From NCBI GenBank assembly GCA_902547295.1, contig CACCNJ010000001.1, positions 18,459 through 82,458 of the forward strand: a stretch of 64,000 bases of DNA. Reading direction: 5' to 3'. Below, in pieces: positions 12,001-15,000 of the stretch. Source of the DNA: an uncultured SAR86 cluster bacterium (lineage in GTDB: Bacteria > Pseudomonadota > Gammaproteobacteria > Magnimaribacterales > D2472). The stretch's first letter is position 1. The number at the start of each line of letters is the position of its first letter. The position numbers were made by a program.

Positions 12001-15000
12001 AGAGCCTCAAAAACCTTCATACTGTTATTTTTTTGAAAATAAATTGAAACCTTTTTTGTTAAATTTTCTGACAGCCACTTTAGAGTTGGGAAATGAAGAT
12101 GATCAGGATGTTCATGAGATATCCATATGATATCAACATCAGAAATAGATTTCTTTATAGCATCTAAATTCGGCCTTGGATCAAGCTCCCAACCATCATT
12201 AAAAGCTGTACCAAAAAACCACGGATCCGTTAAAATTTTAGTATTATCGCTTTCTATAAGAATGCTTGCATGAGATATTAATGATATCTTTGAATAATTA
12301 TTTCCACTCATAAAACTTGCTCCAGCATTTAAGAAATGAGTTAATTAGCAACTAGTATACAGCGCTTGCATAACTATTCCCACTCAATAGTTGCACAAAA
12401 CACCACCTCTGAAACCCTTACTATGACAGTGTTTCCGAGTGCCCTTTTTGTGTAATACCACTTTGTCAAACTTTTATAACTCTATTGAATTTTTATTCAT
12501 TTTAAACTTCTTGCAAATTTTCTTACTTTTTGCATATGCTTTTCAAAGTCACTTTTTTCCATATTTGGAAGGACTGAATAGAATCTTAAATATTTTATCT
12601 TTAGTCCACCTGATTGAAATACAGACTTCTTTAGTCTCCTATAGGGAATATTATCGAAAAGAGAAAAATTAAAATAACTTACCATCGGTCCTCCATAAGT
12701 CATTGAAACAATACCAATTTTATTTTTCATTGCTCCAGCAACAGGATATCCATAATTCCCAAAAAACTTGCTATCAGGTAATAACGATTTGTAAGAAAAA
12801 AACCATGTTGGATGAAGAACCCAGTCAATCCAATTTTCTAGGACACCACTCATTCTTAAATTATGACAAGCACTCATTAAAAACATAACATCAGCATCTT
12901 CAAGTCTATTTCTATAATCTGTTACTAACTTTGGAGGTGGATTTATATCACTTCTATAAAATGGTAATTGTTCTTCTTCATCAAATAAATTAATCAAATC
13001 TATTTCATGTCCAATTTTTTTTGCTTCATCAATAAAGGCATCTCTCACGGATGCATTAAATGAATCTTTAGTATTGTAATGACCGAAAACTATACAAATT
13101 TTCATCTTATTCCCACTCTATAGTTGCACAAAACACCACCTCTGAAACCCCTACTATGACTGTGTTTCTGAGTGCTATTTCTTGATTTATAGACTTTGTC
13201 AAACTTTTATAACTCAAAATTTTTATTTCCTAAGTCTTTTGGATAGTTTAGGAGCATAAATATTTATACCCAAATAATTTCTTACAAAGTTTTGTCCGAT
13301 AATATAAGTTATACCAATTATTAAAATCCACCAAGAAATATCTTCTCTTACACAAAAATATATAAGTACACTGATGGCAACAAAATCAGCAATATTCATA
13401 AAAGCATCAATCCAAAAATATTTACTCTTACTCATTTTGTCACTCCCACTCAATAGTAGAACACCTCTGAAACCCCTTATTTGCAAGGTTCTGTAAATGG
13501 TGTGTCACATTTGTGTCATATGAATTATTCATTTTTTAATTTGTTTGTTTACCAACTTCATTTTTTCAAGATTTAAACCTTTTATATTCACTAAATTGCT
13601 AAAAATTGTTGCGAATAGTCGAATAGAATAATTTTCAACTTCATCAAGAAGGAAACTATATTCGGGATGAAGTTCAAAAAATAAAAACTGATCAAATTTT
13701 TCCATAGCAACTCTTGAAGAATTTTCTTTAACTCTATCACCAAAAGTATTTGCCTTTCCTACATAAATTTGATCATCATCTTTATTATTTAAGATGTATA
13801 TAACATTTGCTCTTGAAGAATATCTTTTCAGTTCTTTTTTAGGTATCCACCTATCAGAATAATCAATGAACAATTTGTCTTTCTTTTTAGATTTATTTTG
13901 GTCCTCATAGAATGCAAATAAATTTTTATCTTCTAAAAAATAAAACATCTGATCAAAATCTGTCTCTTGTTTAGAGATTACCTTGACTCTGAAGATGTTA
14001 TCTTTTTGATGAATAAACTCTAAAAGTTCTTTGAGTTTTGGTTTTGCTTTATTTCTTGTTGAAGCATAACTGTATATCATCAATTTTCTTATCTCTTTCA
14101 GAGTTTCTAATTCTCTGTCATAAAAAATTTGGACAACTTCTCTTTCTGGATATATTGTTTTCGATCTATTTTTTATTTTTCCCTTGTTGTTTATTCGTGC
14201 AATTCTTATTTTTGCTTTACGTTTTTTTCCATTTATTAATAAGATAATTTCTTTGAATTTTGTTTTTTCATTTAAATTAAAAAATTTTATATATTCTGAG
14301 TAAACTGCTTTTTGTAAAGTAAATCCCCAATGGAAAAAGTAATACCCAGGAACAACATAAAAAGAACTCAGTTTATTCATTCAATTATTATGCCATGCAC
14401 TTATGACTTTCAATAGTTCTTAAAGTGTGTCAGATTTGTATTTGTAAGATTTGGAAACCTGCATTCCTACATTGAAGTGACAAATTGTGTCACGCGTAAA
14501 CTACTGATATAAGGTAATTATTTCATTCCCACTCAATAGTTGCAGGAGGTTTGCTTGAGATATCATACACGACCCTGCTGACTCCCTCTATCTCATTTAC
14601 AATTCGATTCGATACATTTTCTAAAAAATCATATGGTAGATGTGCCCATTTTGCTGTCATAAAGTCTACTGTTTCAACAGCTCTTAAAGCAATCACTTCA
14701 GCATATCTTCTTTCATCTCCAACCACACCAACAGATTTAACAGGAAGTAAGACTGCAAATGCTTGGCTAATTTTTTCATATAATTCTGCTTTAATAAGTT
14801 CCTCAATAAAAATATTATCTGCTTGTTGTAAGATTGATATCTTTTCCTTTGTAATCTCACCAATAATTCTTACTCCTAATCCAGGCCCTGGAAAAGGATG
14901 TCTCTCAAGCATTTCTTTTGGAATTCCTAGCTCAATTCCGAGTCTCCTTACCTCATCTTTAAATAAATCTCTTAGGGGCTCGATTAGATCTAATTTCATT

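Follow-up and report, generated by a model that had tools for sequence, protein, structure and literature searches.

Behind guaA of an uncultured SAR86 cluster bacterium, a region of 2.1 kb contains three further copies of the last codons of this gene, and the question raised by the locus is how these copies and the genes between them came to be there. The region lies in a stretch of 64,000 nucleotides of contig CACCNJ010000001.1, referred to here as the window. According to the original prediction, repeated site-specific integration into the 3' end of guaA has duplicated an attachment (att) core. This reading is supported by the present analysis, since gene content varies at the repeat boundaries. 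The region is very probably a tandem array of three integrase-less integrative cassettes at an attachment site formed by the end of guaA. Rarer parent elements that carry the integrase occupy the same spot in other cells and would have supplied the integrase for the cassettes. SAR86 is among the most abundant uncultured groups of the surface ocean, and the gain and loss of accessory genes in its small genome are poorly understood. The cassettes behind guaA would show how a streamlined ocean bacterium swaps such genes.

The 15-mer TTCCCACTCAATAGT is found exactly at 14526-14540, the end of guaA, and at 12377-12391. It recurs with one mismatch at 13110-13124 and 13443-13457, and all copies lie on one strand. 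Four matches were reached in none of 100 dinucleotide shuffles (shuffle mean 0.10). The stops that follow the four cores are TGA, TGA, TAA and TAG. Exactly one minus-strand open reading frame (ORF) lies between consecutive cores (283, 70 and 202 amino acids), and the start codons of the 70- and 202-residue frames are located 4 and 1 nt past the respective pseudo-stops. In all of these points, namely the four repeats encoding TIEWE with their coordinates and strand, the differing stops, the synonymous ATT-to-ATA exchange, the single frame between copies and the start spacings, the original prediction was accurate. The extent of the repeat had been under-described. Copies 3 and 4 are parts of a direct repeat of ~105 nt (13108-13215 and 12375-12482; 92% identity over 73 nt plus 23 nt exact), and GGTTTCAGAGG is present 4-12 nt upstream of the core in all three downstream copies. 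Each downstream repeat consists of the 14-nt core ACTATTGAGTGGGA preceded by a conserved right arm of 65-105 nt. From guaA onwards, the array is laid out as follows.

14523..16088, minus strand: guaA (GMP synthase, 521 aa; Pfam GATase 3e-50, GMP_synt_C 2.3e-44), with its T-I-E-W-E end as the chromosomal attachment site
14527..14540, minus strand: core 1 (ACTATTGAGTGGGA) inside guaA, an attL-type junction whose left half-site TGCAACTAT reaches 14544
14527-14534, minus strand: crossover octamer GAGTGGGA in core 1, assigned from the linkage of variants to flanks
14381..14526, minus strand: left arm 'a' of cassette 1 (146 nt), which aligns with the left arms of integrase elements L208, L156, L194 and L127
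14486-14492 and 14426-14432, minus strand: TGACACA sites in left arm 'a'; the inverted TTTGTCA is at 14478-14484
14399-14418, minus strand: remnant of integrase codons 3-8 (20 nt) in left arm 'a', from the alignment to integrase elements
13529..14380, minus strand: cargo of cassette 1, a protein of 283 aa whose C-terminal part weakly matches GIY-YIG nucleases (Pfam)
13458..13520, minus strand: right arm A of cassette 1, with TATGACACAAATGTGACACAC, a variable hairpin, GGTTTCAGAGG (13464-13474) and then TGTTCT
13444..13457, minus strand: core 2, followed by G-TGA; cassette 1 from core to core is 13444-14526 (1083 bp)
13223..13435, minus strand: cargo of cassette 2, a 70-aa protein from the ORF call, with no Pfam family
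13125..13215, minus strand: right arm B, first copy, with GAGTTATAAAAGTTTGACAAAG, GGCACTCAGAAACAC, GGTTTCAGAGG (13139-13149) and GTGTTTTGTGCA in that order
13111..13124, minus strand: core 3 (variant ACTATAGAGTGGGA), followed by A-TAA; cassette 2 from core to core is 13111-13443 (333 bp)
12497..13105, minus strand: cargo of cassette 3, a 202-aa flavodoxin-like FMN/quinone reductase (family F7; Pfam)
12392..12482, minus strand: right arm B, second copy, the direct repeat of 13108-13215, with TTTGACAAAG at 12461-12470 and GGTTTCAGAGG at 12406-12416
12378..12391, minus strand: core 4, followed by A-TAG; cassette 3 from core to core is 12378-13110 (733 bp)
12367-12377: ATAGTTATGCA beside core 4, an imperfect copy of the inverted half-site ATAGTTGCA

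Left arm 'a' contributes the final base of the terminal Glu codon of guaA together with its TGA stop. Each unit is composed of a left end that provides the Glu base and a stop, one cargo gene, a right arm with TGACA(C/A)A repeats and GGTTTCAGAGG, and the 14-nt core. At other loci, 38 unique variants of right arm A and 58 of right arm B were found. An invariant GGTTTCAGAGG block is common to both arm families (13464-13500, 13139-13175 and 12406-12442 in the window). Its upstream partner (CTGAAAC, AAACCCTT or CTCGGAAAC) shifts in sequence and register, and pairing is still possible. GGTTTCAGAGG and its partner may be an inverted repeat to which a protein, possibly the resolvase, binds, or may fold into a hairpin. 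TTTCAGAG is also found in the left arms of integrase elements.

For comparison, 80 guaA loci were taken from reference genomes, 36 from SAR86 (up to ~21.5 kb each) and 44 from other bacteria. One to three extra cores are present in 17 of the 36 SAR86 loci, all downstream of guaA and co-oriented with it; there are none in the other 19 and none in the 44 non-SAR86 loci (0/44). The stretch from guaA to a conserved gene for a CoA-binding protein differs in almost every SAR86 genome. In one seemingly empty locus (L003, ~3326-4100), a pseudogene of F7 is present, and behind it the degraded remains of an arm and a core (GCAATTGAGTGGAAATGA) abut the CoA-binding gene. The number of genomes free of arrays must therefore be read as a maximum.

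A generic dispersed repeat of the repetitive extragenic palindromic (REP) or miniature inverted-repeat transposable element (MITE) type, or a local duplication or slippage of the guaA end without site-specific recombination, is an extremely unlikely source of these copies. Units of ~150 nt without cargo do resemble MITEs. However, core and arms are confined to the region behind guaA, in one orientation, both in the 64-kb window and in all 36 SAR86 loci, an outcome in favor of the original prediction. Furthermore, the arms are the ends of integrase-bearing elements, and the array cores of two loci (L017 and L016) differ synonymously from the host's own guaA end. Because of these differences, the array cores of L017 and L016 are imports and not local copies. 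The cargo-less units measure 146-158 nt between two cores (L110, 30-190; L085 and L086) and consist of nothing but left arm 'a' fused to arm A. They look like MITE-style minimal derivatives of the integrase element.

The arrays are also present in metagenomes. With a degenerate pattern, arm and core were found together in at least 120 metagenome contigs among the matches listed, and many of these contigs stop at the repeat, as expected for a site that is both repeated and variable. At least 103 complete core-to-core units were obtained, which fall into at least 85 sequence clusters (median 1135 bp, range 118-5365 bp). Single-gene units account for 54 of the 103 complete ones listed, and 134 ORFs of the listed cassettes are oriented with guaA and 24 oppositely. 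Across loci, R-T-R-R stands directly after 241 of 245 cores and thereby supplies the end of the Glu codon plus TAA, TGA or TAG. Therefore, any unit can adjoin guaA and guaA remains undamaged. At some junctions a perfect 9-bp inverted repeat is formed (TGCAACTAT-TGAGTGGGA-ATAGTTGCA), the usual core layout of tyrosine recombinases.

The clearest polymorphism is seen between the window and the contig L201. The two are 99.1% identical over guaA and 99.4% from core 2 to the end of F7. L201 lacks exactly 13458-14516 of the window, that is the GIY-YIG unit, and the alignment blocks overlap by 24 nt at the core. This polymorphism is a recent gain or loss of the GIY-YIG cassette, and presence and absence at the repeat boundaries, with arrays in 17 of 36 SAR86 loci, agree with the original prediction. 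Just past F7 (window 12489-12497; L201 1631-1675), identity falls from 99.4% to 76% within a few bases, and in L201 F7 is joined directly to a CoA-binding gene only 76% identical to that of the window. Thus, one cassette array resides on two different downstream backbones.

Individual cassettes behave as modules. The cassette with the 70-aa protein (332-333 bp) is also present in L005, L120, L172 and L201, which gives five contexts together with the window. Upstream of it are guaA (three cases), arm A (window) or a hybrid arm (L172); downstream are F7, a pair of F5 lipoprotein genes, a gene of the major facilitator superfamily or something else. The similarity between the copies ends exactly at the core on both sides. 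The core variant ACTATA is linked to the upstream arm of cassette 2 in the window, L005, L120 and L201, with three different downstream neighbors. The base after GGGA and the stop codon are linked to the downstream unit. Since ACTATA goes with the upstream arm and the base after GGGA with the downstream unit, the crossover is placed within GAGTGGGA. The F7 cassette is found in five contexts with at least three right-arm types and four downstream neighbors. It has an arm in L100, L111, L161 and L162; in L002, L010 and L201 it is a plain neighbor of guaA or of the CoA-binding gene. Because F7 also adjoins its neighbors without an arm, its history is ambiguous. In the three armless loci, the stop codon of F7 overlaps the ATG of the next gene (ATGA).

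The integrase (family F38/P0001) was located by means of the palindromic half-site. Five palindromic junctions are followed by an ORF of ~406 amino acids with matches to Phage_integrase (2.9e-11) and to the SAM-like N-terminal domain Phage_int_SAM_5 (1.6e-7) in Pfam. The next gene encodes a serine recombinase of the resolvase family (195 aa; Resolvase 3.6e-39). The integrase is Xer-like and has the motif RHxxA instead of HxxR, and its scores fall well short of every NCBIfam cutoff. Many homologs are present in Tara, JGI, ENA and Logan data. Wherever context is available (15 loci: L186, L127, L156, L194, L088 and L202-L211), the gene is located ~120 nt behind guaA, co-oriented with it and followed by the resolvase gene. 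The hosts are SAR86, a closed 1.6-Mb genome (CP151794, L208), other lineages and a metagenome-assembled genome (MAG) labelled Pelagibacterales. In other lineages, one identical integrase protein is found behind three different guaA alleles. As expected from the original prediction, the recombinase is thus encoded outside the window, by a tyrosine integrase gene behind guaA elsewhere, in elements that end in the arms of the window.

These autonomous elements have 3-7 kb and encode the integrase, the small serine recombinase and a few small conserved proteins; conjugation or mobilization genes were not seen in the marine elements examined. In L186, a complete element of 3.9 kb lies between the guaA core and a second core and has arm B at its right end (core 4017). 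Arm B is likewise the right end of the integrase element of L127 (core 3419). In CP151794, an element of 7.2 kb carries integrase, resolvase and a restriction-modification system, ends in arm A (core 15023) and is followed by a MerC cassette and further units. Cassette 1 of the window is connected to these elements by its left arm 'a', in which three TGACACA-type sites are kept at positions matching the left arms of integrase elements. With this arm and the remnant of integrase codons, the GIY-YIG cassette is a descendant of an integrase element. Six cargo-only copies of the left arm have different cargo and a common endpoint.

Some of the elements have a 165-aa ORF at their right end (L156, 3190-3687; L127, 5-505) with an HUH-like motif (HFHVLLY), a YxxK-like motif (YATKK) and a weak Pfam match to REP_ORF2-G2P (0.0066). 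Going by these motifs, the excised element might replicate by rolling circle. Further arm families (GTTACAAAC, ACTACACAC and GTTACAC) are present on the same core in L204 (6443-8472) and L208 (15914-17221). Behind a core with GTTACAAAC-type arms lies the gene of a second integrase subfamily (443 aa), which shares 30% identity with the first, and an integrase fragment is encoded nearby on the opposite strand. Since the second subfamily follows arms of this type, arm type seems to go with integrase subtype. In L211, the MAG labelled Pelagibacterales, 7839-9227 contains a 46%-identical integrase behind guaA, the shared ATTGAGTGGGA core, arm repeats of another type (ATCACCTAA) and DNA-methylase cargo. 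If the label of this MAG is correct, the system may reach beyond SAR86 to SAR11-type genomes.

Taken together, the parts suggest how the array could be built. The integrase would bind the arm repeats via its N-terminal ~80 residues and would also bind the inverted core half-sites TGCAACTAT and ATAGTTGCA. Strand exchange within GAGTGGGA would then gain or lose one core-to-core unit per event and leave guaA intact. Integrase-less cassettes would be moved in trans when an autonomous relative shares the cell. Homologous recombination between guaA and shared arms may also reshuffle cassettes.

The repeats had also been proposed to fit an integron-like cassette platform. In such a platform, the guaA end would be attI, the repeats would be attC sites folded as single strands, and an integrase of the IntI type would capture promoterless cassettes. 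The functional resemblance stands. As in mobile integrons and clusters of attC sites lacking integron-integrases (CALINs), the units of the marine arrays are mostly single-gene, co-oriented and probably promoterless, each ending in a recombination site at the 3' end. Furthermore, both draw on a large and diverse pool of cassettes, arrays without integrase outnumber those with one, and a segment of the arms could fold into a hairpin, with compensating changes in its stem. As an explanation of the locus, an integron is nevertheless very unlikely. Upstream of guaA lies guaB and no integrase gene adjoins the array there; the integrase travels inside the mobile units on its own small element and not on a fixed platform. 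With 17.9 bits against the integrase_gron model (cutoff 265), it is no IntI, and there is no attI beside it. No GTTRRRY/RYYYAAC core pair, and hence no attC, was found on reading the arms. Instead, the arms carry direct TGACA(C/A)A arm-type repeats, as in attP of lambda-type systems.

Several observations weigh against the interpretation as cassettes that are mobilized by an integrase. As the original prediction had stated, the window encodes no integrase or resolvase: none of its six-frame ORFs matched the family profile hidden Markov model, the integrase and ResG of the genomic island GIsul2 (described below) or the second integrase subfamily (E<=1). Nor was an integrase or resolvase found in the 36 SAR86 reference loci, and among the 120 listed metagenome contigs only six have matches to the integrase family (five full-length and a weak one in L094). 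By these counts, derivatives far outnumber parents. Mobilization in trans in this particular cell is something we infer. No excised circle or contig with overlapping ends is present among the contigs examined. Arm A, arm B, arm plus core and the palindromic core had no matches in viral contigs of IMG/VR; with these four scans negative, there is no evidence for phage packaging. The cargo-only left arms lack the 24 core-adjoining nucleotides that hold the ATAGTTGCA half-site, a loss that could lower the ability to excise, and from cassettes 2 and 3 the left arm is missing altogether. F7 may be an old resident rather than an import, since armless copies exist. Finally, the difference between L201 and the window could be due to homologous replacement with guaA and the 70-aa cassette as flanks.

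Part of this evidence favors a fossil array, in which autonomous elements integrated, lost the integrase and most genes and are now immobile, so that genomes differ by homologous recombination only. Cassette 1 is a visible deletion derivative with an integrase remnant and a lost C' half-site, the window and the 36 reference loci have no integrase, circles were not seen, and the drop in identity from 99% to 76% after F7 in L201 shows that homologous backbone exchange does take place here. We consider a fossil array unlikely, because individual small cassettes reappear in several orders and beside different neighbors, with breakpoints exactly at the core, whose 14 nt are too few for RecA to recombine efficiently. 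Furthermore, the six cargo-only shells share one deletion endpoint in spite of different cargo, and shells of 146-158 nt without any cargo exist. Only if every unit can come to adjoin guaA would the stop rule be expected to hold as it does, at 241 of 245 junctions. Most likely, the region of the window is therefore an array of integrase-less cassettes that were inserted by site-specific recombination.

The closest known counterpart is the genomic island GIsul2 with its CR2-sul2 unit. At guaA, the integrase of GIsul2 uses the same GAGTGGGA core, and in recA- E. coli it acts in trans to excise and integrate CR2-sul2, which is bounded by att sites and has no integrase of its own (PMC9376610). For this system, tandem arrangements of units in which att cores are re-formed have also been reported (PMC9376610). 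GIsul2 was recovered here from an E. coli chromosome (NZ_AP045795) by means of split guaA/yfgI junctions. This junction is split at the guaA stop in 860 of 5,426 complete E. coli genomes, with ~15-18 nt duplicated. With so many junctions split, the 3' end of guaA is a heavily used integration site in E. coli too. Two E. coli loci (L212 and L213) were taken up here, and the one split case that was opened is GIsul2. Like the marine system, GIsul2 targets the 3' end of guaA (in Gamma- and Betaproteobacteria), and its core 5'-GAGTGGGA-3' falls within the E-W-E codons; the E. coli junctions read ACCATTGAGTGGGAATGA (attL) and ACAATAGAGTGGGAATGA (attR). Both have the integrase gene just behind guaA and co-oriented with it, and both have a resolvase-family gene on board. 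The integrases, on the other hand, show no detectable relation (GIsul2 integrase versus marine P0001, BLASTP E 0.21), and the resolvases are 27% identical. A tblastn search of PLSDB gave no GIsul2-type match. GIsul2 comprises 15 kb with genes for replication, transfer, arsenic and sul2, whereas the marine elements have 3-7 kb and their derivatives, of at least 85 kinds, are mostly single-gene units of ~0.3-2 kb with arms unlike those of GIsul2. Two unrelated integrase lineages have thus settled on the same eight bases of guaA. In Firmicutes, Tn5801 inserts at the guaA end by means of a further integrase lineage. ICESt1 of Streptococcus thermophilus and its related cis-mobilizable elements (CIMEs) offer a precedent for non-autonomous units: elements reduced to their att sites share the 3' end of a conserved gene with autonomous relatives, in tandem arrangement, and are mobilized in cis or trans. 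Elements of the CIME/ICE type and Tn5801 are conjugative or mobilizable, have tens of kilobases and belong to Firmicutes.

A parallel is provided by the tycheposons of Prochlorococcus and by additive flexible islands of marine and freshwater bacteria, in which streamlined planktonic hosts, an Xer-like tyrosine recombinase and niche or defense cargo are combined and the elements are rare compared with the islands (bioRxiv 10.1101/2020.12.28.424599). Repeated integration at one site pushes older units inward and leaves partial target repeats and integrase-less remnants (bioRxiv 10.1101/2020.12.28.424599). Additive islands of Methylophilaceae are marked by recurring repeats of tRNA 3' ends (PMC10872708). 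In contrast to tycheposons, the marine target described here is the end of a protein-coding gene and every unit has to supply a stop codon; integrase and resolvase take the place of integrase and primase/helicase modules, and the units are much smaller. The only tRNA gene of the window is located far off, at 35830-35906; the target is guaA and none of the tRNA genes at which tycheposons integrate. A published account of a marine or SAR86 integration system at guaA was not found in the literature searched. The locus is a guaA-anchored additive island with a previously undescribed integrase lineage and mostly integrase-less one-gene cassettes. It widens the picture of tycheposons and additive islands from tRNA genes to a protein-coding gene, in which inserted units must rebuild the stop.

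A more general proposal is made tentatively, and it may well prove too broad. SAR86, and probably other streamlined marine bacteria, would possess an integron-like mode of gene capture with the guaA end as the dock. One-gene cassettes, drawn from a large pool in the environment and bearing only a right arm of ~70-105 nt, would be moved in trans by rare helpers of 3-7 kb, which encode a new guaA-specific lineage of tyrosine integrases and a serine recombinase, and would be expressed by read-through from guaBA. Several subfamilies, each with its own arm motif (TGACACA, TTGACAAAG, GTTACAAAC or ACTACACAC), would share one core. For the locus itself, the mechanism is defined at the sequence level by a dock at guaA, a recognizable integrase family and a cassette pool that can be counted in metagenomes by arm plus core. 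With an integrase of 406 amino acids and att sites of ~230 bp, the system is small enough for testing in E. coli.

Across cassettes, the cargo includes restriction-modification systems, surface-modifying acyl- and sulfotransferases and small membrane proteins, functions that are thought to drive arms races between phages and hosts as well as niche differences. In the window, the GIY-YIG assignment of the cassette 1 protein has a basis in a Pfam match, but this match is weak (E 4.4e-4, below the cutoff), as is that to PADLOC PDC-S14 (4.6e-4); the protein is a singleton in protein clustering. A GIY-YIG homing endonuclease as the mobilizing agent was ruled out, because it is present in one cassette only and the arms account for the placement. 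The assignment of the cassette 3 protein as a flavodoxin-like reductase is confirmed by matches to Flavodoxin_2 (1.1e-19) and FMN_red (1.1e-12). The 70-aa protein of cassette 2 is a putative membrane protein, to judge by its hydrophobic stretches. Promoter and terminator scans gave counts at chance level, except for a promoter-like site with 10 of 12 matching positions (14413->14384) upstream of the GIY-YIG ORF, in the former integrase leader. Transcription of the promoterless cassette genes would probably come from guaBA or from an upstream cassette.

An Rfam scan of the region gave no relevant match, and look-ups of the exact guaA, GIY-YIG and F7 proteins of the window returned no record. 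The guaA of the window is 98% identical to that of the SAR86 single amplified genome AG-918-K05. Downstream of core 4, the following features are present.

10129..12311, minus strand: downstream flank with a metallo-beta-lactamase-fold protein (458 aa) and a GT2 glycosyltransferase (260 aa; both from Pfam)
9679-10092: CoA-binding gene, with no core or arm ahead of it

In the interval from core 4 to the CoA-binding gene, a search for additional cores was negative. The stretch with the metallo-beta-lactamase-fold and glycosyltransferase genes may belong to the native flank or may be an older unit whose end has disappeared. The sole other gene of the metallo-beta-lactamase type behind a core (L110) encodes a protein 29% identical to that of the window.

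A 308-aa protein is encoded directly after cores in L109, L191, L157, L099 and L081 and is also present in L011 and L074. In BLAST clustering it groups with IMP dehydrogenase. By eye it resembles an enzyme of the GMP-reductase type and may thus be a purine-metabolism gene that travels as cargo beside guaBA.

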